Notes: a model not told the origin generated them from the sequence alone. 64,000 nt of DNA from an uncultured bacterium (GCA_963725235.1 CAVRXN010000003.1:139204-203203); one strand, 5' to 3'; counted from the stretch's first letter, positions 133 to 56,234 are shown. Numbers and translations: made by a program.

Positions 133-2175
133 CTACCAAATCCCCACCCTATCCTCCTCATCGCGCCAAAGCTCATCCCCTTGCTTGACCTCGAACGCCT
201 CATAAAATTCTGGATAGTTCGACGACGGGCCATTGACACGAAACTTGCTTGGTGAATGCGGATCGGTTTGAATATAGAGCCGTTCAAGTTCTTCGCGCTT
301 CTGGCTGCGTTCGGTAACGGCATAATTTATAAAAAATCTTTGTACCGGCATAAATCCATCAACCGACGCATTAGCGTTCGCATCTCCCGCCGCAACTTTC
401 TCCGCAAGCGCCAACTTCAATCCATCCAACGCGATCAAAATCCCGCCAAGGTCGGCAATATTTTCGCCGAGAGTTAATTTTCCGTTAATGTGTACGCCAG
501 GCAATGGCTCATACTTATCGAACTGCTCGGCAAGATGCGCCGCGCGCGCATCAAACCGCGCCTTATCCTCCGGCGTCCACCAATTTTTCAAATTGCCGTG
601 CAAATCAAAAAGCGCACCCTGGTCATCAAGCCCATGCGTCAGCTCGTGCCCGATGACAGTCCCGATCCCGCCAAAATTCAGCGCATCATCGGCGAGAGGA
701 TCAAAAAACGGTGGTTGCAAAATCGCAGCAGGAAATGCGATCTCGTTTAGCGGCGGCTGGTAGTAGGCGTTCACCATCTGCGGCGGCATGAACCATTCGT
801 TCCGATTCACCGGCCCGCCAACCTCGCGCATCTTGCGATCGAACTCGAACGCATGCGCGCGCATAACATTCTGCGCATACGAATCGTCGCGCACCTCAAG
901 CGCCGACATATCCTTCCAAACATCCGGATAGCCAAGCTTCCGCGAAACGCCTTCTAACTTTTCAATCGCCTTCGCTTTCGTCTCCGCACTCATCCAATCA
1001 AGCTTCGCAATCCGCGCTCGATACGCCGCAGTCAAATGATCAACAAGCGCATTAATCTTCGCCTTCGCATCGCCGCCAAAATGTTTTTCGACATACAACT
1101 TGCCGAGCATCTCGTCGAGCGATGCGTTCGTGACCGACAAAACGCGCCGCCACAGCGCTTTCATCTCCTTCGCACCGTTAAACGTGCGCGCGTAAAAATC
1201 GAACCGTGCACGCTCCAACTCTTCGGTCAAAAAACCGGAAAACGCAGCGAGCGTCTGCCACCGCAAATACATTTTGATCTGATCGAGCGGCAACGATTCA
1301 AACAATCGATCAACCTCGGCAAAGAATTTCGGCTGACCAACGATAAAATACGCCGGCTGGGCAATCCCAACCGCGTCGAAATATTTCGCCCACACAATCC
1401 GCGGCGTTACCGCAGCAAGCTCGGCCGCACTCATCTTGTTATACATCTTCTCAACATCCCGCAGCTCGACGCGCGTCATCGATGCACGGGCAAGATCCGT
1501 CTCGATCGCCATAATCGCATCAGCCGCCGCTGCGGTGACGGCATCAGGAATTTTTATTAAATTCTGCGCATTCGTAGCTTCAACAACGCCCAGCTTCACG
1601 AGCGTCGCCTTCATATATTTTAGATAATCCGCGCGAATCGTCTTGCTCTTCTCATCGTCATTCAAATAATAATCACGGTCCGGCAAACCAAGCCCACCCT
1701 GATATAAATGCAACGCCACCACCTCGCTCTGTTTTTCATCCTGCTCCGCCGATGGCGTCCACCATACGCCAACGCCCTGTCGCTGCAAGTAACCGATCGC
1801 CGCGGCAAGATCGTCATTCAAATTACCACCGGCACCGTTCCCGCCAATTGCATCGATCCGCGCGAATAACTCCGCGAGCGGCTGCAAACCCAAACGATTC
1901 CGTTTCTCGACATCCATACCCGTCGTATAAAAATCGCGGATGCGCCGCTGATCTTCGGTTGCGGTCGCGTCTGTCGCCCCGGATGAAATCAATCCATCCA
2001 AAATCTCATGCAGCTGCTCCTCGACCTGCACGCGCAAAATATCAAACGAGCCCCACCGGGATTCATCAGCCGGAATCGGATTCGCTTTCATCCACCCGCC
2101 GTTTACGTACTGAAAAAAATCATCTGCCGGCCTGACTGTCTTATCAAAATTTTCCGGATCGAGAAATGATGGCAT
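133..2175 (-). CDS. pepO: M13 family zinc metallopeptidase (PepO/neprilysin-like endopeptidase)
   Basis: ORF 133-2388 trimmed to ATG 2175 (MPSFLDPENF...). Zinc motif HELTHGLDDQG (HExxH) and ENIADLGG. C-terminal PHSPSKFRVNG is typical of M13 peptidases. No signal peptide seen. Confidence 0.9.
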   Translation of the reverse strand: MPSFLDPENFDKTVRPADDFFQYVNGGWMKANPIPADESRWGSFDILRVQVEEQLHEILDGLISSGATDATATEDQRRIRDFYTTGMDVEKRNRLGLQPLAELFARIDAIGGNGAGGNLNDDLAAAIGYLQRQGVGVWWTPSAEQDEKQSEVVALHLYQGGLGLPDRDYYLNDDEKSKTIRADYLKYMKATLVKLGVVEATNAQNLIKIPDAVTAAAADAIMAIETDLARASMTRVELRDVEKMYNKMSAAELAAVTPRIVWAKYFDAVGIAQPAYFIVGQPKFFAEVDRLFESLPLDQIKMYLRWQTLAAFSGFLTEELERARFDFYARTFNGAKEMKALWRRVLSVTNASLDEMLGKLYVEKHFGGDAKAKINALVDHLTAAYRARIAKLDWMSAETKAKAIEKLEGVSRKLGYPDVWKDMSALEVRDDSYAQNVMRAHAFEFDRKMREVGGPVNRNEWFMPPQMVNAYYQPPLNEIAFPAAILQPPFFDPLADDALNFGGIGTVIGHELTHGLDDQGALFDLHGNLKNWWTPEDKARFDARAAHLAEQFDKYEPLPGVHINGKLTLGENIADLGGILIALDGLKLALAEKVAAGDANANASVDGFMPVQRFFINYAVTERSQKREELERLYIQTDPHSPSKFRVNGPSSNYPEFYEAFEVKQGDELWRDEEDRVGIW

Positions 2176-2305
2176 GGTAGTAAATTGCGAACGCCACGTT
2201 CGCTCTATATATAGAGGAAAACATGGCGGCGAAAATTTTGCAAGATTACATGAAAAGAAAATGGACGCAGGGATGGACACCTGCGCCCATAAGAAACCCA
2301 TAAAC

Positions 2306-2602
2306 TCATCCAGAAACAGGACCAATGCCCAACCGATGAGCCCAACGGTCGTCGGCATGATGAAATGCACCTTCGGTAACCTCACCATCTTTAACGAACT
2401 GACGAGGCGTATTGTGACCGCGGCGCGGGCGAGGAGGGAGCGGAAAGCGAATAGCTACATCCCACTGCGGAGAGTAACCATCAGCAGTTAAACCTTTCAG
2501 CAAAGATTCCACCTTCGGGCTCGAACAAATAGCTTCATTAATTGCCTCATCAAGCTCTTTGACAACTTTGCGATCCGGTCGTCGGCGTCGTCTATTAGAC
2601 AT
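2306..2602 (-). CDS. hypothetical small basic protein
   Basis: ORF 2306-2659 trimmed to ATG 2602 (MSNRRRRRPDRK...). GGAGG Shine-Dalgarno (complement of 2613-2617) about 10 nt upstream. No recognisable motif. Confidence 0.5.
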   Translation of the reverse strand: MSNRRRRRPDRKVVKELDEAINEAICSSPKVESLLKGLTADGYSPQWDVAIRFPLPPRPRRGHNTPRQFVKDGEVTEGAFHHADDRWAHRLGIGPVSG

Positions 2603-2655
2603 CTTCTTGGTGCCTCCTTCTACTATCTTAAAGCTACCGCCGCGCCGAACCGCCG

Positions 2656-3066
2656 TCAATCCCCCGCCTTCCGCACAATCTCCCGGATCGTGCCGACATA
2701 AAAACCGCGCGATTCGTCATCGCGCGGCCCAATAAAAACTTTTGTCGACGGGCTGATGCCCAGTTGCTTCGAGAGTGGCGTCAGGTGGTCCACCAGCAGG
2801 GCAAGTAGTTGCGGATCCGGCCCGAACGTCATCTCGCGAAAACAATAGAGTGCGTCCTCATCCGGAACATACCATCCGCAAACCGCTTTCCGGAAAAAAT
2901 TTTCATCAGCGTTAGCCGCAGCGTCGCTCCCACCGTTCACTCCAATCCACCGTTCGCGCCGGAACCAATCGTAATGCGAAAGCGCGCACCCCTCTTCGGC
3001 AAGCGCTCCAGCCGCAAAGCTAGTAAATGGTAGGACCAACACCGCACAAAGCAAATGCCGAATCAT
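2656..3066 (-). CDS. hypothetical secreted protein
   Basis: 136-aa ORF with N-terminal signal-peptide-like segment MIRHLLCAVLVLPFTSFAAGALA. No family recognised. Confidence 0.55.
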   Translation of the reverse strand: MIRHLLCAVLVLPFTSFAAGALAEEGCALSHYDWFRRERWIGVNGGSDAAANADENFFRKAVCGWYVPDEDALYCFREMTFGPDPQLLALLVDHLTPLSKQLGISPSTKVFIGPRDDESRGFYVGTIREIVRKAGD

Positions 3067-7598: not shown

Positions 7599-7659
7599 TT
7601 AATCAAGATTTAATTTTTGCACGGCGCACATATACGGCGCAATCCATAAACATAGCAAA

Positions 7660-7722
7660 AGCCGCTCCGCTCAAAACTCTCAATTCTCGACTACAGGTAT
7701 AAAAGTTCTGAACGGAGCGGCT
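7660..7722 (-). terminator. hairpin plus U-run inside the murB upstream region (possible attenuator)
   Basis: 10-bp stem AGCCGCTCCG/CGGAGCGGCT enclosing 43 nt. Followed on the minus strand by UUUUG, about 60 nt upstream of the murB ATG. Confidence 0.35.
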
Positions 7723-7790
7723 AAGGTGACCTCCAATTCTGTTGTTATTGAATGAGTGCTCTATAGCTGCTCCACAATCATTATACATTA

Positions 7791-7817
7791 TTAAAACCAA
7801 AAACCCCCAATCGGGGG
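7791..7817 (-). terminator. intrinsic terminator-like hairpin
   Basis: Minus strand reads CCCCC-GAUU-GGGGG followed by UUUUUGGUUUU. Confidence 0.45.
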
Positions 7818-7892
7818 ATTCGGCAACAGAATTTTGCGGGACATACCTGAGCCGATATCATCGTTCGGGTATGCTCACACTCATTCATTGCT

Positions 7893-7921
7893 ATTGTAGC
7901 ATAGACCTAAATATTTTGCAA
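7893..7921 (-). promoter_or_regulatory. sigma70-like promoter (TTGCAA-17-TACAAT)
   Basis: On the minus strand: -35 TTGCAA (7916-7921), 17-nt spacer, -10 TACAAT (7893-7898). It points toward murB and would start a transcript near 7886. Confidence 0.5.
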
Positions 7922-7943: not shown

Positions 7944-8011
7944 AAACACCCTAACAAAAAGGGGGCGAATGCGTTCTGACGCCTCTTCGCCCCCTTTTTG
8001 TTAGGGTGTTT
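7944..8011. repeat. nested palindromic hairpin element, member 1 (putative bidirectional terminator family)
   Basis: AAACACCCTAAC-AAAAAGGGGGCGAA-TGCG-TTCTGA-CGCC-TCTTCGCCCCCTTTTT-GTTAGGGTGTTT. It ends 3 nt after the stop of the DsbA-like gene. Confidence 0.75.
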
Positions 8012-10889: not shown

Positions 10890-11096
10890 TTATCGCGCAT
10901 TCCCATCTCTCGCAATGTCAGCATACAGCTCACGCAACTCGTCCGGAGTTTTTCCAAAACGCTTATCGGCGCTGTGGTCAGTTATATAGAAATCCAAATC
11001 GAAACCCCGTTCTTTTTCTTTATCCGGCTCTTGCTCTATTTGCTCGAGATCGACATCCTTTGGCTCTTCTGCAATAGGAAAACTTTCTTTGCTCAT
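10890..11096 (-). CDS. hypothetical small acidic protein
   Basis: 68-aa ORF. TTGTCA-17-TATGAT promoter with the -10 box exactly 6 nt upstream of the ATG (leaderless arrangement). Confidence 0.4.
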   Translation of the reverse strand: MSKESFPIAEEPKDVDLEQIEQEPDKEKERGFDLDFYITDHSADKRFGKTPDELRELYADIARDGNAR

Positions 11097-11126
11097 AGAA
11101 AAATCATATCTTATTTTTGTATGATT

Positions 11127-11155
11127 GACAAATAATCATCAAGATTATATATTAT
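11127..11155 (+). promoter_or_regulatory. sigma70-like promoter (TTGACA-17-TATATT)
   Basis: TTGACA at 11127-11132, 17-nt spacer, then TATATT. Drives the small-ORF operon 11198-12011. Confidence 0.5.
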
Positions 11156-40504: not shown

Positions 40505-41403
40505 ATTTTTAACCTCTTATAAACACCCCGCGCCCACCACGCCAAAGGGTAGAAATGATATTTTTTAGTGAATGGTACGTCCATAAACTTCCTATACTTC
40601 ATATTTTTCCATGACGTCAAGTTAGCATAATGAACATATTCCGGTTGAAATGGAAGTGCCGAAAAGAAATACCACGGCTTGATCCCGCCAGCAAAATGCA
40701 CCACGAGCGGATCATCTTCTCGCGTAGAATTATGAGGGACCGGAATGAAATTGTATCGTGCGCTCAGCTGCTTCCAATCATTCAACAACACCATATTTAA
40801 AGGATCCTGATCGGCAACCCAAAGTTTGTCGGGGTGCTGCCGAATAAATTGGAATAACTTCTCACCGATATTACGTTTTCGCCATCGGTCTAAATCAATT
40901 AACAGCATCCCGGAATTAAAATATTTTAATTTCTGGGGTTTGCCAAATTCAGGAATGTCTTCGGACAATTGCTTGACGTGCTCTTTCCACCAGTCCTGCG
41001 GACAATCATGGACAGCACCAACCGTGTTTCCTGCCAAACCAACGTCAAAAAGTTCCTTAATGTCTCCGCGTATGATGACGTCGCAATCAAGATAAATAGC
41101 TCGATGGCAGATTGCCGGTAATAATGCCCCAATGCTGACGCGATAATACGCCGGCAAGGAATGCGGCAAATTCATGCTTTCGAAAAGGGCTCTATCCGGC
41201 AAAAGGTATGTTAGTTCAAACTGATATCTTGTTTTGAGTTCTGCCAGTCGCTGCCTATTCTTTTCCGAGATACCGCCATCCATGATAAAAATACTGACGG
41301 GATAATCGCCGCGCCTGTTTTCAAAAAGTGAGCATAATGCGACGCCTAGAAGCATGGCGTGATTATCATTCGACGAAAAAACAACGGATATCATGACCCT
41401 CAT
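40501..41403 (-). CDS. GT8 family glycosyltransferase
   Basis: [16 protein letters not shown] (DxD) and [15 protein letters not shown], typical of LPS glycosyltransferase family 8. Confidence 0.85.
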
Positions 41404-41436
41404 TATTCCACAATACTCAAAGAATTTCCATTATGC

Positions 41437-41442
41437 TATGAT
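41437..41442 (+). promoter_or_regulatory. -10 box TATGAT 6 nt upstream of ATG (leaderless)
   Basis: TATGAT-aggcga-ATG(41449). Confidence 0.4.
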
Positions 41443-42035
41443 AGGCGAATGGAAAACAGATACTGGTCAGCGAAAGCAGACCTGCGTTATCTTTCTTGGT
41501 ATGCTAAAAACTTTTTTTCTTTTAAGGGGCGAGGGGCCATTTTTATAGCATGCTGGGTGAGCGGCTTAGTCCCGCGGGTTCTGTTCGGCCCTCGTGGTAA
41601 AAATGCGATAAAAAAATTATATAGGCAGGCAGTCGCAAAAAAGAGACGTGCGATGCCTGTCTTGATAAATGGAAAAACACATACAATAATCCTCCGGGAT
41701 CTTGATGATTTCGATCTCTTTCATGAGATATGCATCCGCGATTTTTATGGAACAGCTGACCTGCTGAAAACAGGCATGACAGTGGTCGATGTCGGTGCAA
41801 ATATAGGGACATTCTCGATCCTTTCAGGGATCGAAGTGGGTAACGGTGGGAGGGTGATCGCATTCGAATTGGAAGCTGATAACTTTTCGATGCTGGAAAA
41901 AAATGTAGCCGCAAATGGGCTCCGAAACACTATACTAAAACAAGTGGCCATAGGCGATTACGATGGCGCTGGGAAGATGTATATAAGCCCCAGCCATGAA
42001 GGACATTCACTGCTCAGAAACAACTCTCATCAAGG

Positions 42036-43039
42036 CTGTGAATTACGAAATTCCCTTTTTCATATGAATACGGAGAACGCAAAGGAACCGCAGTGGTCTG
42101 CGGATTTCAAGTTTTTTGAACAGGACCCATCAAACACACAAAAGAAAGTTACTTGCTGAGCACAAAGGAACAGACAGCGTTCGCGTAGTTCGCGAGGTAG
42201 CCGTCAACGGAACGCGGCAGCGACGTCACGAGGCCGTAGAACAGTTTCATGGAGCGGAAGTCGAATTCGATCTGGAACCTCGACCGGTAGAGCTTCAACT
42301 GCCAGGGCAGGGCGAGCTTCTTCATGCTCCTGAGCGGGCGGATCATGACCCACCGCTTGCCATCGATGTTCATATCCTTCTCCAGTTGCTTCGAGACATA
42401 GCCCGCATCGGCAACGATGACACCGTTAATATCTTTGTTCACGGAACGGAAAAGGTCGCGGTCATTCTTCGTCGCATCCGAGAACCGGATGCCGAGGATG
42501 TTTCCGTCCGCATCCCGCGTCATCGTCATTTTGAGCCCGTAATACCAGCCTTTCGAGCTCCTGCCGAGGGATGCGAACGCTTTCATCACCCGGTGGGAAT
42601 CGGCATTCTTCTTGAGGCAGACCGGAAGGTCGGTCGCATCCGTGTACTTCACGAGATGCCCATGGGCCTTTCCCCATTGCATGATGATCGCGAGGATCTT
42701 CATCGCGAAAACGCCGGCACGGTTCATGGCAACGACAAGCGTCTTGTATGAGCAGGCGAGCCCATCCTTGAAATCCTCGTATACGGACTTCTTCGTAGCC
42801 CGTGTGCTCGCATGCTGGTAGAGGGCTAATGCCACCGCATCCAGATTTTCAATTTTCAGAGGTCGACCTTGGGGATTCTTTTTGTGTGTCAGATTGAGCT
42901 TGAATGATGTTACAATATCAGTGATCCTGTTCTTGAGATTTCTCAAGATGGGTGAATTCATTTTGTCGTGAGAGGCGCCTTCGGGCGCCTTTTGCATTAT
43001 GCCGTATTCATATGAAAAAGGGAATTTCGTAATTCACAG
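42036..43039 (-). mobile_element. IS982-family insertion sequence (1004 bp)
   Basis: Perfect 38-bp terminal inverted repeats CTGTGAATTACGAAATTCCCTTTTTCATATGAATACGG (42036-42073, reverse complement at 43002-43039). Flanked by the 8-bp direct repeat CATCAAGG (42028-42035 and 43040-43047). Confidence 0.85.
42149..42997 (-). CDS. IS982-family DDE transposase
   Basis: DATDLPVCLKKNADSHRV...GRSSKGWYYGLKMTM...VIVADAGYVSKQL...SLPRSVDGYLANY matches my recollection of IS982 transposases. A GGCGCC-TTCG-GGCGCC hairpin (42972-42989) lies between two candidate starts (42997, 42961). Confidence 0.8.
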   Translation of the reverse strand: MQKAPEGASHDKMNSPILRNLKNRITDIVTSFKLNLTHKKNPQGRPLKIENLDAVALALYQHASTRATKKSVYEDFKDGLACSYKTLVVAMNRAGVFAMKILAIIMQWGKAHGHLVKYTDATDLPVCLKKNADSHRVMKAFASLGRSSKGWYYGLKMTMTRDADGNILGIRFSDATKNDRDLFRSVNKDINGVIVADAGYVSKQLEKDMNIDGKRWVMIRPLRSMKKLALPWQLKLYRSRFQIEFDFRSMKLFYGLVTSLPRSVDGYLANYANAVCSFVLSK

Positions 43040-43317
43040 CATCAAGGAGAAAGCGATACGACCGTCACAACCATAGATAGCGCCTTAAAAGATCTTAAAG
43101 TCGATACGGTTGACGTGTTAAAAATTGATGTCGAAGGAACCGAAATAGCAGCGCTCGAGGGAGCAGTGGAAACGATTAAAAGGAATCCATCGATATGCAT
43201 TATGGTTGATGCAATTCATTATCCAAATGAAGATCGTGACGTTGTAGAATATTTGAAAAGGTTGGGATTCACAACAAATCGCATCGAAGATTTTATTTTT
43301 GCGAAACGACCGATTAT

Positions 43318-44274
43318 CTAAACCCTCACCCACGTCGAGGGCACGACACCGCGCTCGGGTGAACCATCGGCATACCAACGCTTCGGCGCGACGACGATCT
43401 TTTGGACGCCCGGCTTGGACGCTCCGCTTGGATCCGTCATCCCTCCCAGCCACGCCGCCCACCAGGCGAAGCTGCTGTTCGGAATGATAAAATGGCGACA
43501 GGCCGCAAGCAGCTGTAAATATTCACCGAACTTCTTTCCGGCATATTCATGGCCGACATAGGTGACTGCGAGATCAGGAAACTCGGGAAATTTTAAATTC
43601 TCGCGACACCAATCAATTTCATCCGAGAAAACGTAGACGTGTGGAGTTTGGGGATTGCCAAGACCCGCCAAAACGATTTTCATCCCCTGCTGATAATATT
43701 CGAGGCCGACAAATCCGTGTTGCTTGATAGATCGCGCCACCGTCACAAAATCGCCGCGCCGGACATTCACCCCGATCGACCCACCAGCGCGAATCTGCGC
43801 CTCAAGTTCGCGAGCCCGCGCCGACAATGGCTCTCGCAAAACAAACTCCCGCCGAATCATCGCCGCAATCGCCTCAAAATATCTTTCACTTTGCCAAGCA
43901 CCGTCCAAATAAAAATTTCCATGCTTCGGCAATGATTCGATATTAAAATCCGCCGCCTCCCGAACAAAACGCTGCACGCCAAAAATGGATTTCACAAAAG
44001 TGACGATTACGCTCAAACCCGCCCACAGCACCGGCACCGGGAATCGCAGCGCCACGCGCGAAAACAACGTCAGCCGTGCATCAATATTAAAAATATCTAA
44101 ATCGTAACCACGAAAAACAAATCCGTGAAAAAGAAAGTTGGGGCGCGGCGTACGGTCAAGCAACGGCGCGGCGTCCAGAACAACTTCATCCCCATTTCGC
44201 TCCGCCAACGCCCGCGCGAACGCGTACTGGAACATCTGATTGCCCATCCCGCCCTTGAGCCGAACCGTAATCAC
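43318..44274 (-). CDS. GT11 family alpha-1,2-fucosyltransferase-like glycosyltransferase
   Basis: MITVRLKGGMGNQMFQYAFARALA N-terminus and HVRRGD-like VNVRRGDF, typical of GT11. Confidence 0.85.
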   Translation of the reverse strand: MITVRLKGGMGNQMFQYAFARALAERNGDEVVLDAAPLLDRTPRPNFLFHGFVFRGYDLDIFNIDARLTLFSRVALRFPVPVLWAGLSVIVTFVKSIFGVQRFVREAADFNIESLPKHGNFYLDGAWQSERYFEAIAAMIRREFVLREPLSARARELEAQIRAGGSIGVNVRRGDFVTVARSIKQHGFVGLEYYQQGMKIVLAGLGNPQTPHVYVFSDEIDWCRENLKFPEFPDLAVTYVGHEYAGKKFGEYLQLLAACRHFIIPNSSFAWWAAWLGGMTDPSGASKPGVQKIVVAPKRWYADGSPERGVVPSTWVRV

Positions 44275-46443: not shown

Positions 46444-46529
46444 AGGCCAGACGTGAGCAGGGCAGCAAAAAAACCGAGTCGGTTCTGACCGCTTCTCGGT
46501 TTTTTTGCTGCCCTGCTCACCCCTGGCCT
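46444..46529. repeat. nested palindromic hairpin element, member 2
   Basis: AGGCCAG-ac-GTGAGCAGGGCAGC-AAAAAAACCGAG-TCGG-TTCTGA-CCGC-TTCTCGGTTTTTTT-GCTGCCCTGCTCAC-cc-CTGGCCT. The right end overlaps the rny stop codon. Confidence 0.75.
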
Positions 46530-48071
46530 ATCTTGCGTATTCAACTGCCCGAATTTCCCGGATGACATTCACTTTAATTTCGCCGGGATACTTCAGTTCC
46601 GATTGTATCTTGTTCGCTATCTCGCGCGCAAGTTCAAGCGCGCGGAAGTCGTCGATCTTTTCCGGAACGACGAAGACGCGGAGTTCACGGCCTGCTGCAA
46701 TCGCATACGCGTTTTTGACGCCAGGGAATTCATCAGCGAGCTTCTCGAGATCGCCCAGGCGTTTAATATAATTTTCGAGCGTACCGCGCCGCGCACCCGG
46801 CCGCGCCGCTGACAAAACGTCCGCCGCAGTAACGATATATGCTTCCGGTCGCGCATACGGATAATCCTCATGATGCGACTGCATCGCTTCGACAACCGCT
46901 TCATCGACGCCATATTTCCGTAGAATCTTTATGCCAAGCTCAACATGCGTCCCTTCGACCTCGTGGTCGATCGCTTTGCCGATATCGTGCAACAACGCGC
47001 CCCGCTTCGCAACGTCGGCGTTCAAACCAAGCTCGCGCGCCATCATCTCGGCGATATAGGCCATCTCGGTCGAGTGGATCAAAACGTTCTGCCCAAAGCT
47101 CGTGCGGAAATGCAGCCGACCAAGCAGTTGCAGCAATTCTTTCGGCAAACCATAAACACCAAGATCCTCGCCGCCGCTTCGCCAATTTCCTGCGTCCGCT
47201 TCGCGAGCTCCGTCTTCGCCTCTTCAACTTTCTCCTCAATCTTCGCCGGCTGGATGCGGCCATCTTTCACCAATTTCTCAAGCGCCATGCGCGCCATCTC
47301 GCGGCGGAACGGATCGAAGGACGAAATAATAATCGCTTCCGGCGCTTCGTCGATGATAAATTCGACGCCAGTCGCGCGTTCGAGCGCGCGGATATTGCGG
47401 CCTTCGCGGCCGATAATTTTGCCTTTCAGATCCTCGTCCGCGAGCGGGAACATCGTCGTCGTAATTTCTGCGACATGCGAACGCGCGTAGCGCTGCAGCG
47501 CGATCGTAATAATTTCCGCCGACTTTCTTTTCGATCTCATCGCGATTCTCGCGGTCAATCTTTCTGGATGCGCTGAGCCAGATCATGCGAACGATCTTCT
47601 TGCGCCTGCCTCATAATCTCCTCGCGCGCCTGCGACAACTGACAAGCCAGCGATTTTTTCCAATCGCCCCGAAACCTCGCCTTCGCGTTCGGCCAGCTCC
47701 GCCTCCTTCGCCTTCATCTTTTCCTCCTTCGCTCGCTAGCTTCGTTTCCTCCGGCTTCGACATCCGCCGACTTTCTTATCGAGCGTTTCTTCTTTTTTCA
47801 ATAAATGCGCTTCAAGCGCATCAATCTCTTTCCGCCGCTTCTTCTCATCATTTTGAGAATCAACCAAAAGCGAGGCTGCTTTTTCTTTCGCCTCGACGAC
47901 AATTTCCTTGGCTTTCGCCTCCGCGTCAGCCAGATTCTTTTTAATTTTTTCTTCTATCTTCTGTTCTTCGCCCGCAAACTGCTTAGCCGCCCAGTACCGA
48001 CGAACCAGATACCCCACGGCGATGCCGACTATAAGAGCGGCAGCCGCAACCAGCGCTGTTGATGCTTGCAT
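46528..48071 (-). pseudogene. rny: ribonuclease Y, frame broken at four or more sites
   Basis: N-terminal TM helix plus coiled coil (47736-48071). KH domain KGKIIGREGRNIRALERATGV (47079-47558). HD domain LLHDIGKAIDHEVEGTH and C-terminus (46528-47148). The pieces lie in different frames. Confidence 0.85.
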
Positions 48072-48238
48072 GATAATTAGTTAATGAAATGCACATAAAT
48101 TTAATGACTTTTAATGTCATTATGATACTCCGGATTCATCCTTTGGTCAATCCTTTCCCTCCTGCCTTGCAAAAAAGCGAAGATTCTTCAAACAAAGCTG
48201 TATTTTTTGGCCATGTTTGTTTTCTGCCAATGACTCGT

Positions 48239-48312
48239 CGCCCTGCCCTGCAGCGCAAAAGAGCAAATCGGTTCTTACCGCTCTTTGCTCTTTTGCGCTG
48301 CAGGGCAGGGCG
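48239..48312. repeat. nested palindromic hairpin element, member 3
   Basis: CGCCCTGCCCTGCAGCGC-AAAAGAGCAAA-TCGG-TTCTTA-CCGC-TCTTTGCTCTTTT-GCGCTGCAGGGCAGGGCG. Lies in the divergent rny/gpmI intergenic region. Confidence 0.75.
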
Positions 48313-48319
48313 AGATTCA

Positions 48320-48328
48320 TGTTAAAAT
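48320..48328 (+). promoter_or_regulatory. extended -10 (TGtTAAAAT) 6 nt upstream of the gpmI ATG (leaderless)
   Basis: TCATGTTAAAAT-aaccac-ATG(48335). Confidence 0.45.
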
Positions 48329-48334
48329 AACCAC

Positions 48335-49894
48335 ATGGCCAAGAAAACAACTGTCCTCATCGTCCTCGATGGCTGGGGTATCGGGCGGCACGATGAAACG
48401 AATCCGATCTGGGTGGTGAAGCCACCGACGTTCGAGTGGCTGCGCGAAAATTATCCGATGACGAGCTTACAGGCATCGGGCATCGCCGTCGGCTTGCCGT
48501 GGGGCGAAGTCGGCAACAGCGAAGTGGGCCACATGACGCTCGGCGCCGGAAAAGTGCTCTACCAATACTTCCCAAAGATCACGATGGCGATCCAAGACGG
48601 AACATTTTTTGAAAACCAGATTTTGAAAGACGCGTTTGCACATGCGAAACAGACCGGCGGTGCGGTAAATTTTGCCGGCTTGCTGACGAAAGGCAACGTC
48701 CACGCATCGCTCGACCACCTCCTCGCGCTCATTAAAATGGCGCGAACCGAACTCGGCGACAACGCGAAAATAAATCTGCACCTTTTCGCCGACGGAAAAG
48801 ACAGCCCGCCGCATACACTGACAACTTTCCTCAAAGAAGTCCCGCACGAATATCTCGCATCGCTCATTGGCCGCTACTACGCGATGGACCGCAACAGCAA
48901 CTGGCGCCTAACGCAAACTGCGTACGAAACGATGACCGGCCAAATCGGCCAAATCGTCGACGATCCGGCGGCGATTATAGATGCGACCTACAAACAAAAT
49001 ATGACCGAGGAATATTTGCCGCCGATCCGGTTTGGTACCGACCAAGCGACAGCCGACGCAAAAAAAATAAAAGATGGCGACGCCCTCATCTTTTTCAACT
49101 ACCGCGAAGACAGCATCCGCCAGCTCGCCTCGTCATTTATTTTAAAAAGTTTTAATGAATTCCCGGTCCTGCCGCTGCAAAATTTGTTTATCGCAACCAT
49201 GAGCCACTATCGCGATGATTTCGACGTTCCCGTCATTTTTCCGGCCGACACGGTAGAAAATCCCATCGGAAAAATTTTCTCCGACCGCGGCATGTCCCAA
49301 CTGCGCCTCGCCGAAACGTATAAGTACGCGCACGTAACATATTTTTTTAATGGTCTCCGCGAACCGCCGTTCCCCGGTGAGTTCCGAACGCTCATCCCCT
49401 CAATCTCGGAAGTTCATCCCGAAGAACATCCCGAAATGATGGCAAGCTCGATAACCGACCGCTTGATCGAAGCCGTCCAAAGCAAGGGGTTCGATTTCAT
49501 CCTCGTCAATTATGCGAATCCCGACACGATCGCACACACCGCCGACTACAACGCCTCGCTCGAAGCCGTGCGCGTCATCGACCGTGAAATCGCGCGCGTC
49601 CTCGCCGTCGCCCAAACTCCCGACGTCCTCCTCGTCATTACCGCCGACCACGGCAACATAGAAGAATTGATCAGCCCGACAACCGGCCTTGCCGAAAGCC
49701 AACACGACCCCAGCCCCGTCCCGCTTTACATCATCGCCCCCGAATTCAAGGGCCGCAAATTTATGAACGCCGACACGTTCGAAACCGAAACCCTCGGCTC
49801 CCTCGCCGACGTTGCGCCAACCATTCTCGCCATCATGGGCATCCCCAAAGCGCCCGACATGAACGGCAGGAGCTTGCTTGACAATTTGATATAA
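48335..49894 (+). CDS. gpmI: 2,3-bisphosphoglycerate-independent phosphoglycerate mutase
   Basis: VLIVLDGWG, GNSEVGHMTLGAG and ADHGN motifs. 519 aa. Confidence 0.9.
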   Translation: MAKKTTVLIVLDGWGIGRHDETNPIWVVKPPTFEWLRENYPMTSLQASGIAVGLPWGEVGNSEVGHMTLGAGKVLYQYFPKITMAIQDGTFFENQILKDAFAHAKQTGGAVNFAGLLTKGNVHASLDHLLALIKMARTELGDNAKINLHLFADGKDSPPHTLTTFLKEVPHEYLASLIGRYYAMDRNSNWRLTQTAYETMTGQIGQIVDDPAAIIDATYKQNMTEEYLPPIRFGTDQATADAKKIKDGDALIFFNYREDSIRQLASSFILKSFNEFPVLPLQNLFIATMSHYRDDFDVPVIFPADTVENPIGKIFSDRGMSQLRLAETYKYAHVTYFFNGLREPPFPGEFRTLIPSISEVHPEEHPEMMASSITDRLIEAVQSKGFDFILVNYANPDTIAHTADYNASLEAVRVIDREIARVLAVAQTPDVLLVITADHGNIEELISPTTGLAESQHDPSPVPLYIIAPEFKGRKFMNADTFETETLGSLADVAPTILAIMGIPKAPDMNGRSLLDNLI

Positions 49895-49948: not shown

Positions 49949-50323
49949 ATGTTTAAAGATGGCTCTGGACCACTCATATTTGGAGCGATCCTAACGATAT
50001 TCCTCTTGATCCCGGAATGGCTTGTCGGAACAATCGGCTATAATGTACTTGGCCAGATAATGCTTCGACGAATCGGCTTCGAAATCTTGGTTTTCGCCAT
50101 CATCGTGGCGATATTCGATACAAGCCTATTCCATGGTTACACATCCTTAATCGGTCCCGGATGCGTATTCCTGATTATAGGAATGCAGACCGAGAGCCGC
50201 GAAGCTGTAGTAACCATCGCCCTCACGATATTCATATCGTGGGCCGCAATGTTCCTGATCTACAGACTCCGAAAGCTCATGGACCCACGTCCACTCTCAA
50301 AACCGTGGGACGCTCGACGGTAA
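49949..50323 (+). CDS. hypothetical membrane protein
   Basis: 124 aa with 3-4 hydrophobic helices. No motif recognised. Confidence 0.5.
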   Translation: MFKDGSGPLIFGAILTIFLLIPEWLVGTIGYNVLGQIMLRRIGFEILVFAIIVAIFDTSLFHGYTSLIGPGCVFLIIGMQTESREAVVTIALTIFISWAAMFLIYRLRKLMDPRPLSKPWDARR

Positions 50324-50343: not shown

Positions 50344-50385
50344 CCGCTCCGCGCACACCTCGTGCCCGGAGCGGTTTTTCATTTT
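50344..50385 (+). terminator. rho-independent terminator
   Basis: CCGCTCCG-(GCAC..GTGC)-CGGAGCGG followed by TTTTTCATTTTT. Confidence 0.65.
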
Positions 50386-50398
50386 TAGCAAGAATATG

Positions 50399-50478
50399 GG
50401 CATCCCGCAGGCATGCTGCAAAAGAGCGAATCCGTTCTTACGGCTCTTCGCTCTTTTGCAGCATGCCTGCGGGATGCC
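50399..50478. repeat. nested palindromic hairpin element, member 4
   Basis: GGCATCCCGCAGGCATGCTGC-AAAAGAGCGAA-TCCG-TTCTTA-CGGC-TCTTCGCTCTTTT-GCAGCATGCCTGCGGGATGCC. Confidence 0.75.
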
Positions 50479-50484
50479 GTGTCA

Positions 50485-50493
50485 TGTTATAAT
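50485..50493 (+). promoter_or_regulatory. extended -10 (TGtTATAAT) 6 nt upstream of ATG 50500 (leaderless)
   Basis: TCATGTTATAAT-gaaaaa-ATG. Confidence 0.45.
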
Positions 50494-50499
50494 GAAAAA

Positions 50500-50886
50500 A
50501 TGCACTGGCTCTTCAAGCTGATCCTTGTAACCGCTGGCAATGCATTCGCACTCTGGCTCGCGAACTGGGCGTCGATGCGCTACTTCCCCGGTTTCATCCT
50601 AAGCGCGCCGATCGTCGGCCTTATAATAATCGCGCTCATATTAACAATCCTCAATTTCCTCCTAAAACCAGTCCTGACTTTAATCCTCGGTCCGCTGATT
50701 ATCATCACGCTCGGCCTCGGCCTGATCGTCGTGAACGCAATCGTCATCTGGGTGCTCGCCTACCTTTCCAACCTGCCGCAGTTTGACTTTATGCACGGAA
50801 GTATTAGTATTCAATCGATTCCCGCCCTATTCTTCGCGACCATCATTATCAGCATCGTAAACTTCGTCATCCACCTGATTACTTAA
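50500..50886 (+). CDS. DUF360 / phage-holin-4-like membrane protein
   Basis: ORF 50413 trimmed to ATG 50500 (MHWLFKLILVTAGNAFALWLA...). Four TM helices. LLKPVLTLILGPLIIITLGL is typical of this family. Confidence 0.65.
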   Translation: MHWLFKLILVTAGNAFALWLANWASMRYFPGFILSAPIVGLIIIALILTILNFLLKPVLTLILGPLIIITLGLGLIVVNAIVIWVLAYLSNLPQFDFMHGSISIQSIPALFFATIIISIVNFVIHLIT

Positions 50887-52887: not shown

Positions 52888-52917
52888 TTGACTTCTTGAA
52901 TGGGTCCGTGCTACACT
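52888..52917 (+). promoter_or_regulatory. sigma70-like promoter (TTGACT-18-TACACT)
   Basis: Lies immediately after the terminator. It would make ATG 52900 non-coding and favours ATG 52966 as the LAGLIDADG start. Confidence 0.4.
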
Positions 52918-52965
52918 ACAATTTCCAAGGTTGAACTCTCCTCATTAAAAACCGACTGGAAATTT

Positions 52966-53601
52966 ATGCATCCACGGCAGAAAGAGATAATTTGGACACG
53001 AGAATTAGCTTACGCAGTCGGCTTGATAACGACGGATGGCTGCCTATATTCTAATGGCCGAACTTTCGATTTTACGTCAAAAGACAGGGACTTGGTTGAA
53101 ACTTTTTGCAACTGCTTAAAAATAGAAAATAGAATCGGCACGAAAAAAAACGGGCACGGAACATCAACTTGCTGGAGGGTCCAATTTGGAAATGTTGTCT
53201 TGTATAAATTTTTACTAGAAGTCGGCCTAATGCCAAACAGATCAAAAAAGCTTAAAGAGCTAAATATTCCTGAGGAACTTTTCTTTGATTTTCTTCGTGG
53301 ACATTTAGATGGGGATGGATCGGTAAAAAGGTACCAAGACCCGATTTGGCCTAAAAGTACGCGGCTATATGTAGTTTTTATATCTGCTTCATCTCCACAT
53401 CTTGTTTGGATAAAAGAAAAGGTAGAAGAACTGCTGGGAATTTCTGGATTTATTCAATTTCATTCGGGTATATACTCTGTGACATTCAGTAAACATAATT
53501 CGATCAAGTTATTAAATAAACTTTATCCTGATCCGGATGTTCCGTGCTTGAAAAGAAAATTTGATATTGCGAAAGAGTTTCTAACAATGCCGAGGTGGTG
53601 A
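52966..53601 (+). CDS. free-standing double-motif LAGLIDADG homing endonuclease
   Basis: Two LAGLIDADG motifs: LAYAVGLITTDGC and FFDFLRGHLDGDGS. The ORF track starts at 52900. The stop TGA (53599-53601) lies inside the tRNA-Leu gene. Confidence 0.8.
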   Translation: MHPRQKEIIWTRELAYAVGLITTDGCLYSNGRTFDFTSKDRDLVETFCNCLKIENRIGTKKNGHGTSTCWRVQFGNVVLYKFLLEVGLMPNRSKKLKELNIPEELFFDFLRGHLDGDGSVKRYQDPIWPKSTRLYVVFISASSPHLVWIKEKVEELLGISGFIQFHSGIYSVTFSKHNSIKLLNKLYPDPDVPCLKRKFDIAKEFLTMPRW

Positions 53602-53675
53602 AATTGGCAGACACGTAGCGTTCAGGGCGCTATGACCGCAAGGTCGTAGGGGTTCAAATCCCCTCCTCGGCACCA
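53589..53675 (+). tRNA. tRNA-Leu (anticodon CAG), class II with long variable arm, encoded CCA
   Basis: Manual fold. Acceptor GCCGAGG/CCTCGGC and D stem GTG/CAC. Anticodon stem TAGCG/CGCTA with loop TTCAGGG. Variable arm GACC-GCAA-GGTC. T arm AGGGG-TTCAAAT-CCCCT, discriminator A, CCA. Confidence 0.9.
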
Positions 53676-54154: not shown

Positions 54155-56234
54155 ATGATTAAAAAACCTGATTCAACTGAAAACAATAAAAAAGAGCAGC
54201 CGAAGGAGCGCGCGCGCATAAAGCCGCCTGAGATTCGGCCGCGGCCAAAGATCGAACCGAAAGAGCCGGGCACGATTCAGATTGGCCGCACGGAAGAGCG
54301 CTACATAAATAGCGAGCGGGGCGAGGATCGGAACGGTGCTGACCGAAACCGCCCGCACGGCGGAAACAGCGGCGGAAGCAACAGTGGTCGACCAGGCGGC
54401 GGCCGCAGCAATCGCCCACCGCGCCGCCAAAGCTTACCGCCAGTTGGCGCCATCAGCCGCTCGAGCGCATCGAAGTTCGGCAACGGCCATCTCGGCCAGT
54501 TCGGCTCGAACGGAAACGGTGGCGCAAACGCAGCTGGCGCAAACGCCGCAGCAATCCCACCCGGCAACCCCGACGCCGTCCGCTTCGTCCCGCTCGGCGG
54601 CCTCGAAGAAGTCGGCCGCAACTGCATGTTCCTCGAATACAAAAACGAGATCGTCATCATCGACGTCGGTTTACAATTCCCGGAAGATGAAACGCCGGGC
54701 ATCGACTACATCATTCCGAACATCCAATATCTCGAAAAGAAAAAGCAAAACATCGCCGCGATCATTTTAACGCACGGCCACTACGACCATATCGGCGCGC
54801 TCCCGCATCTCCTCGGCAAACTCGGCAATCCCCCGATCTACGCGACATCGATCACGAAGGCAATCATCGAAAAGCGCCAGGACGATTTTCCGAATTCGCC
54901 GAAAATGAAAATTATCACGGTGAAGAATCGGCGACGAGATGAAAATCTCGCCGAACTTCGACGCCGTGTTCTTCGGCGTGCCGCACACGATCCCAGAAAC
55001 GACCGGCGTTTTGATGAAAACGCCGGCCGGCAACATCGTCCACTTCGCCGACTTCCGCGTCGACTACAACGACGAAGGCGAGCCGCAGGGCCTCGACGAG
55101 TTCGAGCGGATCGGCAAGATGGGCGTCCACAGCTTTATGGTAGACAGCACGAACGCGGAAAAGCCCGGCCACTCGGTCTCCGAAAAAACCGTCGAGCGCA
55201 ATCTCGAAGAAATTTTCAAAGCTGCTGAAGGCCGCATCATCGTCGCAACATTCGCATCGCTCCTGACCCGCATCGCGGAGATCATCAAGATCGCCGAAAA
55301 GCTCGGCCGCAAAGTCGCGCTGAACGGCTACTCGATGAAAACCAACATCCAGATCGCGGAACAGCTCGGCTTCATCAAAGCGAAAGAAGGCACGATCATT
55401 TCCGTCGAGGAAGTTGCAAAATACAGCGACGACAAAATCATGATTTTGTCGACCGGCGCGCAGGGCGAATCGAACGCCGGCCTGATGAAAATGATCAACG
55501 GCGAACATCGCCACATCAAGATCAAACCAGGCGACACGTTCGTCTTCTCGTCGTCCGTCATCCCGGGCAACGAACGCAGCGTGCAGTCCGTTAAAGACAA
55601 CCTCGCGCGCCAGGGCGCCATCGTTTTCCATCCGCACTCGTCGACATCCACTCATCCGGCCATGCGCCGAAGGAGGACTTGAAGCTCGTGATGAAACTCA
55701 TCAAGCCGAAATTCCTGATTCCGGTGCACGGCTATTATTTCATGCGCGCCGCGAACGGCCAGTCCGCGCGCGAAGTCGGCATCCCGCGAGAGAACGTCAT
55801 TCTGATGGACAACGGCCAAGTCGCCGAACTAACGCCCGGCGAATTCAAGATCACGAAAGAAACCGTGCCCGCATACTACGTCATGGTTGACGGTCTTGGC
55901 GTTGGCGACGTCGAAGAAGTCGTCTTGCGCGACCGCCGCGCACTCGCCGCGGAAGGCATGATGATCATCATCCTGACGATGGGCGCCGGCAAAGGCGGTC
56001 GCCTGCTCAAAAACCCCGACATCATCTCCCGCGGCTTCATCTACTTAAAAGAGAACCAGGAAATGCTCGACGAAATCCGCAAACGCATCCGCGCCGTCAT
56101 GCAACGCATGCCAGCACAACCAAGAAATCGAACCCGATTACCTGAAAACGCTAATCCGCGACCAAGTCGGCCAATTCATCTATAACAAAACCCGCCGCCG
56201 TCCGATGATTTTGCCGGTCGTGATTGAGGTGTAA
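54155..56234 (+). pseudogene. rnj: ribonuclease J with three or more frameshifts and an N-terminal low-complexity extension
   Basis: Metallo-beta-lactamase motif LTHGHYDHIGALPHL, a beta-CASP region, DIHSSGHAPKEDLKL and C-terminal RRRPMILPVVIEV* (stop 56232-56234). Frame changes near 54929, 55635 and 56110. The first ~150 aa are K/E/P/R/G/N-rich. Confidence 0.85.

Follow-up and report, generated by a model that had tools for sequence, protein, structure and literature searches.

The hairpins described here are a lineage-restricted and previously undescribed family of intergenic DNA palindromes in the genome of a Candidatus Paceibacterota bacterium (CPR/Patescibacteria), the host being assigned through its gpmI and DsbA homologues. 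It is a genuine family with sharp limits, few copies and a short evolutionary history. Its members are built in three layers, namely an invariant asymmetric apex, a terminator-like inner module and outer arms that are specific to each copy and perfectly complementary. The matched base changes in their stems are real, and copying of DNA could account for them no less than selection for an RNA fold.

Four hairpins of common design in the window

An inverted-repeat search of the window, i.e. the whole 64-kb stretch of DNA analyzed here, identified four hairpins (members A, B, 3 and 4; Table 1), with arms of 26-35 bp and a spacer of exactly 16 nt between the arms in all four. These are also the only hairpins in the window whose perfect stem reaches at least 12 bp. 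The arms of members 3 and 4 are 100% complementary, and in member B the perfect part (46453-46520) is followed by a 2x2 mismatch and then by an outer 9 bp. Compared with shuffled sequences, the folds of the copies have z-scores of -11 to -14, with -74.2 kcal/mol for member 4 (z = -14.1) and about -70 kcal/mol for member 3 (z = -12.3).

Three further copies were found in related metagenome contigs (L011, L027 and L030), and a covariance model (R1) was built from the seven. It scores the window copies at 61-68 bits (68.1 for member 4 and 64.4 for member 3) and the rest of the window at 13 bits or less; over the window and the relatives together, the seven copies lie at 61-68 bits and nothing else exceeds 22 bits. 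With the filters off, this model detected no diverged or short copies in the window and ~160 kb of relatives.

Members 3 and 4 had drawn attention through a core that they have in common. Each core occurs exactly once in the window, 0 matches being expected in shuffles (n = 100), and its length is 42 nt, not the 40 nt first given. The homology between the two is bounded on both sides by GCAAAA...TTTTGC, and they are paralogues located 2.1 kb apart, not independent lineages.

Table 1. Positions of the hairpins and of the features around members 3 and 4 in the window
Feature	Position	Strand	Description
Member A	7944-8011	+	68-nt perfect hairpin, 26-nt arms, apex 7970-7985
Member B	46444-46529	+	86-nt hairpin, apex 46479-46494
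Member 3	48238-48313	+	76-nt perfect hairpin, 30-nt arms; core 48255-48296, apex 48268-48283
Extended -10 promoter of gpmI	48320-48328	+	TGTTAAAAT; 6 nt past member 3, 6 nt before ATG 48335
gpmI (2,3-bisphosphoglycerate-independent phosphoglycerate mutase)	48335-49894	+	Downstream of member 3
124-aa ORF, no Pfam family	49949-50323	+	Upstream of member 4; also in L041
Ordinary intrinsic terminator of the 124-aa ORF	50344-50385	+	Stem CCGCTCCG/CGGAGCGG (50344-50351/50367-50374) and T-run; compensated conservation in L011
Member 4	50399-50478	+	80-nt perfect hairpin, 32-nt arms, 16-nt apex
Core of member 4	50418-50459	+	42 nt, common to member 3: GCAAAAGAGCGAA-apex-TTCGCTCTTTTGC
Apex of member 4	50431-50446	+	TCCGTTCTTACGGCTC: T bulge 5', stem CCG(T)/(A)CGG, loop, CTC bulge 3'
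Extended -10 promoter	50485-50493	+	TGTTATAAT; 6 nt past member 4, 6 nt before ATG 50500
128-aa membrane protein, Phage_holin_4_2 family	50500-50886	+	Downstream of member 4; 128-aa orthologue in L011

An invariant apex within a terminator-like module

The apex follows the consensus T-SSG-TTCTKA-CSS-CTY in the four window copies, always on the + strand, and this pattern gives four matches in the window for 0.17 expected. It folds into a mini-hairpin of 4 bp that is capped by a tetraloop (UCUG or UCUU) and bordered by a 1-nt bulge on the 5' side (T) and a 3-nt bulge on the 3' side (CTC/CTT). The initial annotation had described a 6-nt TTCTTA loop and T, C and TC bulges, all unchanged between members 3 and 4. 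They are indeed unchanged, but the bulges are T (5') and CTC (3') and the loop is a UCUU tetraloop, because the fold adds a fourth U-A pair. In the seven copies, the nine unpaired apex positions display 2 changes in 63 cells, while 9 of 12 adjoining stem pairs are variable; the two variable apical pairs are exchanged through transversions and always remain G/C. As judged from these sequences, the apex is under a constraint of its own.

Outside the apex, a stem of 5-9 bp is flanked to the left by an A-run (4-7) and to the right by a T-run, and past these runs extends an outer arm of 12-23 bp, copy-specific and perfectly complementary. The inner modules of the seven copies have folding energies of -10.2 to -21.9 kcal/mol. 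Of the 8 nt that come after them in either direction, 4-7 are U, and in members 3 and 4 the U-tail does not exceed 4 nt. The core of member 4 is its inner module (A4, 7-bp stem, apex, T4), with -13.8 kcal/mol and a UUUU tail in both directions. This succession of A-run, stem (ending in a small GC-rich hairpin at the apex) and T-run is the anatomy of a bidirectional Rho-independent terminator, and termination is predicted. A working module would leave the distal outer arm largely untranscribed, so that the perfection of the outer arms cannot be due to termination.

Pairing is maintained, without wobble around the apex

The four differences between the two cores had been read as two compensated pairs, and this holds: positions 11/32 change from A:T to G:C and positions 16/25 from G:C to C:G, both pairs being predicted as paired in the minimum-energy fold. 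Likewise, the outer arms (17 nt in member 3, 19 nt in member 4) are unrelated across copies and perfectly complementary inside each, as first reported. The larger set of seven copies could have contradicted this picture by uncompensated changes or by a loop that is not conserved. Over the 40 columns that surround the apex, the 112 pair cells are Watson-Crick without exception and include no G.U, 19 changes are double-sided and none is single-sided, and loop and bulges are almost invariant.

Between member 3 and its L011 orthologue, double-sided changes affect 6 of the 33 pairs and a seventh pair has become G.T, for a neutral expectation between the window and L011 of about half of the pairs changed. 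An adjacent double change, CC>TT paired with GG>AA, is found between the same two sequences. Only two non-Watson-Crick pairs are known, an A.C on the + strand of member B, which is G.U on the - strand, and the G.T on the + strand of L011. In transcripts coming from the upstream gene, both could form wobble pairs, which hints at some RNA-level selection.

The apex lies on the C-rich strand in the window, L011, L027 and L030 (GC skew -0.125, -0.114, -0.07 and -0.017, respectively). Relative to the upstream gene it is antisense in A and B, sense in 3, 4, L011 and L027, and both in L030. The orientation of the apex thus appears to track the DNA strand, not the direction of transcription.

Taken by the initial annotation as direct covariation evidence that a folded structure is maintained, these changes do establish that pairing is what is kept; selection on a folded RNA does not follow. 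They point to a DNA-level process, whether arm-to-arm templated copying or template switching, because G.U pairs are missing from the 112 cells, arms of 26-32 bp are perfect, 19-bp arms are new and the apex strand is tied to the DNA strand.

A functional structured RNA, as envisaged at first, could be a 3'-end stabilizer, a long double-stranded RNase III substrate destroying read-through transcripts or a protein-binding apex. The predicted folds are very stable, the apical stem covaries, the main stem covaries between orthologues, and the two imperfect pairs are G.U on the strand transcribed from the upstream gene; furthermore, the genes for RNase Y and RNase J adjoin copies. We nevertheless regard such an RNA as unlikely. 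With an apex sense in A and B opposite to that in 3, 4 and L027, no single RNA motif is presented, and the latter three copies, being upstream of a -10 box, are not part of the mRNA of the downstream gene. A functional inner terminator would also leave the 3' outer arm mostly untranscribed, so that selection on RNA cannot keep this arm perfect. The lack of any G.U in 112 cells, the absence of the hairpins from relatives at ~80% identity and the absence of a match to an Rfam family also argue against it.

Copies adjoin stop codons and extended -10 promoters

A stop codon is located 0-75 nt before the copies A, B, 4, L011, L027 and L030. Member A begins 3 nt past the stop of a DsbA-like gene (- strand), member B overlaps the stop codon of rny (- strand), the L011 copy comes after a Fic gene, the L027 copy after nrdB, and the L030 copy occupies the entire gap between two convergent stop codons. 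Window member 3 is devoid of a co-directional upstream gene, the Fic gene of L011 being missing there. On the other side, members 3 and 4 and the L027 copy end exactly 6 nt before a TGTTAWAAT extended -10 box, itself followed by an ATG 6-9 nt beyond; the box of L027 is TGTTATAAT. The same hairpin-promoter layout exists in L011 with a gap of 3 nt. Every copy therefore abuts a constrained element, stop codon or -10 box, on at least one side.

Since three independent copies (3, 4 and L027) end at the same distance from the box and cover the -35 position, a dsDNA or cruciform operator was considered, at which a regulator would bind the palindrome and control the promoter 6 nt downstream. This is very unlikely, as such a promoter 6 nt away is lacking in A, B and L030, as the conserved part is central and asymmetric and does not consist of two symmetric half-sites, as the arms that a dimer would contact differ in every copy, and as the downstream genes are functionally unrelated (gpmI, a holin-like protein and an unknown protein).

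The separate terminator that had been noticed upstream of member 4 exists, with a stem and a T-run, exactly 13 nt (50386-50398) before the hairpin. That member 4 is superfluous for termination, as had been deduced, also agrees with the relative L011, where the upstream terminator is kept and member 4 is absent.

Several observations concern the surroundings of these copies. The genes at window positions 48335 and 50500 and at L027:1946 start 6-9 nt past the extended -10 without a Shine-Dalgarno sequence, and the mRNAs starting there appear to be leaderless; in L035, a more distant relative, a GAGG ribosome-binding site is present ahead of gpmI. Between rny and the member 3 hairpin, a Fic-domain gene is found in L011 (within the stretch 1606-3052) and is missing from the window (corresponding stretch 48072-48237), L041 and L035. 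Before member 3, the window and L011 have in common only the last ~16 nt (TTTTCTGCCAATGACT). A weak A-run/T-run hairpin containing GATTCTTCA at 48170-48209 is possibly an eroded copy of the family. The left outer arm of B (46461-46469) and the right outer arm of member 3 (48302-48310) have the 9-mer GCAGGGCAG in common, so that this stem segment is flipped relative to the apex; it may be due to chance or be a trace of arm formation.

Sporadic distribution and recent gain of member 4

The contigs L011 and L034-L042 are syntenic relatives obtained via homologous proteins. L011, with a gpmI product 89% identical, has an orthologue of member 3 (L011:3053-3126) and lacks member 4. L041 is a strain 97.6% identical to the window, and its member 3 is identical. 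Its Logan contig runs from the apex of B (window 46480) to the left arm of member 4 (window 50428), and this independent assembly also matches the right half of B and the left half of member 4 within its reach. An assembly artefact was discarded, given the recurrence of copies in independent assemblies. The palindromes break short-read assemblies, the L041 contig starting and stopping inside two of them, and copies are probably under-represented in public contigs and metagenomes. The L011 contig also ends beside the expected site of B.

No copy is present in L034-L040 and L042 (~140 kb, about 80-90% protein identity), including at the sites of A, B, 3 and 4; member A is absent at its site in L036, L037 and L042. 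In L011 and L035 the ordinary terminator directly adjoins the promoter, and member 4 is missing. Beyond the syntenic relatives, a metagenome pattern scan with GAATSSSTTCTNASSSCTCTTC led to 22 matches, among which L027 and L030 alone are genuine. The nine matches of a scan of genome representatives with CNAATSSSTTCTNASSSCTCTTNG have no hairpin and are all due to chance, several of them falling within a Bacteroidales coding gene. Pattern scans of a viral contig collection gave 0 matches, and blastn against a phage collection gave chance matches only.

The core of member 4 differs from that of window member 3 at 4 of 42 positions and the core of the L011 orthologue at 9 of 42, and members 3 and 4 have a derived loop T in common. 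From this we infer that member 4 was copied from the member 3 lineage after the split from L011, from which the window has diverged by 32% at four-fold sites. The cores, together with the absence of member 4 from L011 and L035, show that this copy is recent and younger than the separation from the nearest relative. Its 19-bp arms are new and perfect within 0.32 substitutions per site, for which point mutation cannot suffice, so that one arm was presumably copied from the other. Ancestral flanks of A and 4 were sought in L011, L036, L037 and L042 and none was convincing; the switch points were not reconstructed because the orthologous intergenic DNA is too diverged.

Relation to known hairpins and repeats

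The closest description of these elements is that of a bidirectional terminator turned into a propagating, self-extending palindrome. Like bidirectional intrinsic terminators, they consist of an A-run, a GC-containing stem-loop and a T-run and are placed right past stop codons, including between convergent genes. A stem-loop with a U-run is found in seven of seven copies, and all except window member 3 are at the 3' end of a gene. They differ from intrinsic terminators by a pairing that runs 12-23 bp past the A/T runs and by a near-invariant asymmetric apex of 16 nt; moreover, one copy stands behind an existing terminator, and the copies are clearly interrelated and recent. At gathering score, Rfam 15 gives 0 matches in the window, and in E-value mode only generic miRNA-precursor hairpin models appear, at 16-38 bits for thresholds of 47-100.

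Dispersed intergenic hairpin repeats such as REP/BIME, REP-RAYT, Correia/NEMIS, RUP and ERIC are often found at gene 3' ends, are lineage-specific and vary between strains, and intergenic palindromic repeat families can serve as terminators or RNA-processing sites. Families of the REP/ERIC type conserve a stem or terminal sequence, e.g. GTAG in REP, and MITEs have terminal inverted repeats and target duplications. The present family is also dispersed, intergenic, hairpin-forming and lineage-specific. Unlike REP/BIME, it conserves only the apex and the A/T runs, its stems are copy-specific and it has no GTAG; a Pfam scan of the 64 kb detected no gene for a RAYT (Y1 HUH transposase) among the 37 window ORFs. 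A MITE or other non-autonomous transposon was rejected, since the outer ends vary from copy to copy and neither a direct duplication nor a common target is seen in the flanks.

In attC sites and in the end hairpins of IS200/IS605/IS608, folded single strands are read via their structure and extrahelical bases, with an orientation tied to replication. Conserved outer R boxes (RYYYAAC / GTTRRRY) enclose a variable center in attC sites, which form cassette arrays beside intI, and the IS ends flank a transposase. An integron attC was discarded here, given the opposite layout (conserved center, variable ends) and the absence of an array and of an integrase in the window; and, unlike IS200/IS605 or IS608 ends, the copies do not flank a transposase gene. 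There is nonetheless a likeness in that stem sequence would not be what is read, but structure and extrahelical bases.

Another reading, with analogies in REP/RAYT, IS200/IS605 ends and integron attC sites, takes the hairpin as a strand-specific ssDNA signal: it would extrude on one replicative strand, and its asymmetric apex, made up of the loop and the bulges of 1 and 3 nt, would be recognized by a protein. An HUH/Y1 nuclease, a recombinase or a replication factor are candidates, which would mobilize the element or trigger fold-back synthesis. The occurrence of the apex on the C-rich strand in the four window copies and in L011, L027 and L030, its mixed orientation relative to flanking genes, its invariant sequence amid covarying stems, the strict Watson-Crick rule, which lets both DNA strands fold, and the sporadic, recent distribution are all in line with such a signal. 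The strand bias nevertheless amounts to ~6 independent orientation observations (two-sided p ~0.03) with a negligible skew in L030, and copying in direct orientation could alone give the same-strand orientation. Moreover, target-site duplications are absent, flanks and termini are not conserved, and HUH, RAYT, integrase or Rep genes are found in 0 of the 37 window ORFs scanned, the sole transposase belonging to an unrelated DDE IS. We consider such a signal unlikely, to about the same degree as a functional RNA. In its most specific form, the apex is a site on folded ssDNA at the replication fork, read by a CPR protein, with binding or stalling there driving both fold-back synthesis and same-orientation copying. 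This form is decidedly improbable; if true, it would represent a new self-propagating palindromic element that has no terminal repeats and no target duplication and that builds its own locus-specific stems.

Other candidates were tried and rejected. A mimic of the tRNA T-loop would need an apical loop longer by one base and with other purines. Tandem G.A pairs and box C, expected of a kink-turn or box C/D, are absent. Resemblance to the Neisseria DUS, a DNA-uptake sequence, is not a constant feature of the copies, and its stem part is covarying. Guide-like stems were dismissed, the outer arms having no other match in the window, and so was a core inserted in the loop of an older terminator, there being no T-runs behind the outer arms.

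TIGR stem-loop arrays of CPR bacteria and phages consist of tandem units with box C/box D motifs and two spacers, beside a tas (Nop-domain) gene (PMC12045711). The present family resembles them by its CPR host and by variable palindromic stems around a conserved interior (PMC12045711). It is not a TIGR array: the copies are single and 2-38 kb apart, their interior is 16 nt long, and neither a RUGAUGA box nor a nearby tas gene is present.

A proposed DNA-copying origin for the palindromes

Template switching can produce perfect stems and multi-base compensatory changes in one event (PMC8794818). The template-switch (quasipalindrome) mutations described by Monttinen and Loytynoja (2022, PMC8794818) create and repair hairpin stems, and they parallel the present case by the perfect arms, the CC>TT with GG>AA change, the de novo 19-bp arms and the strict Watson-Crick rule. 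They differ from it in being a mutational process in RNA genes and not a propagating family with a conserved apex.

The explanation that we favor, tentatively and at somewhat less than even probability, is that the hairpins are terminator or insulator palindromes that owe their formation, extension and lasting perfection to template switching on DNA and whose local spread is in a single orientation. They would stop or insulate transcription between tightly packed units, which fits their placement directly past stop codons or, in the other orientation, directly before promoters without a -35. Their stems would not be built pair by pair under RNA-level selection. Instead, template switching during replication would copy one arm from the other by fold-back, keeping the stems perfect, and would extend the palindrome outward up to a constrained element, e.g. 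a stop codon or an extended -10 box. New copies would start from an inner module duplicated, without inversion, at a different intergenic location (member 3 giving member 4 being the example), after which fold-back synthesis would make new locus-specific outer arms. The GCAAAA...TTTTGC ends are plausible microhomology points for such a switch. The same-strand orientation of the copies fits with direct-orientation copying.

Several points weigh against this template-switching explanation. Comparison of the copies suggests that apex conservation exceeds what pure descent plus a neutral DNA mechanism would explain. Member 4, behind a working-looking terminator, adds little termination; member 3 is without a co-directional upstream gene, and members 3 and 4 have U-tails of 4 nt. 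Both imperfect pairs are wobble-compatible on the upstream-gene strand, and only seven independent copies are known.

Other features of the window

Apart from the palindromes, the window contains an IS of ~1 kb (42035-43040) with a DDE transposase (PF13612, 42149-42997, - strand) and ~38-bp terminal inverted repeats (GCTGTGAATTACGAAATTCCCTTTTTCATATGAATACGG). The IS is bordered by an apparent ATCAAG target duplication and splits a gene for an FkbM-type methyltransferase (41359-42034 and 43041-43320). The rny gene (46528-48071, - strand) is split over two frames and rnj (54155-56234, + strand) over four, both being intact in L011, L035 and L041; the alignment of L041 with the window has 11 gap openings in 3.9 kb. 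These splits are either indel errors in the window assembly or pseudogenes.

The DsbA-murB spacer (window ~7650-7905, - strand) has two conserved non-coding units, with counterparts at L036:10835-11159, L037:10784-11108 and L042:2055-2379 and no Rfam match. Unit 1 comprises a TGCTAYMAT promoter, a terminator and a hairpin whose covarying stem (CATACC/GGTATG, CATAGG/CCTATG and CATAGCTC/GAGCTATG) encloses a CGATGATATCG loop. Unit 2, the leader of murB, begins with GGAGCWGCTAWAGAGCACTCATTCA, has its own terminator and is complementary over 9 nt to unit 1 at the latter's 5' end.

A free-standing ORF with a LAGLIDADG domain (52900-53601) ends within the start of tRNA-Leu(CAG) (53589-53675), and L011 has an unrelated 122-aa ORF at this place. 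This tRNA was detected by ARAGORN and is not listed by the Rfam gathering-threshold scan. In L038, a relative without the family, nrdB is followed at 11015-11135 by another kind of hairpin (CCCAAAGAAACC...GGTTTCTTTGGG), long and imperfect, whose interior is structured and rich in GC.

Significance

The present family calls for caution, since "compensatory" changes and long perfect stems are explicable by DNA copying. This bears on the discovery of structured RNAs by covariation, and the caution applies especially to metagenome-derived genomes. The palindromes constitute a previously unrecorded feature of CPR genomes, with a conserved tip, variable stems and an orientation that apparently follows the replication strand. 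If the apex is a protein-binding signal, it would offer a handle on replication or transcription in organisms that have not yet been grown alone.
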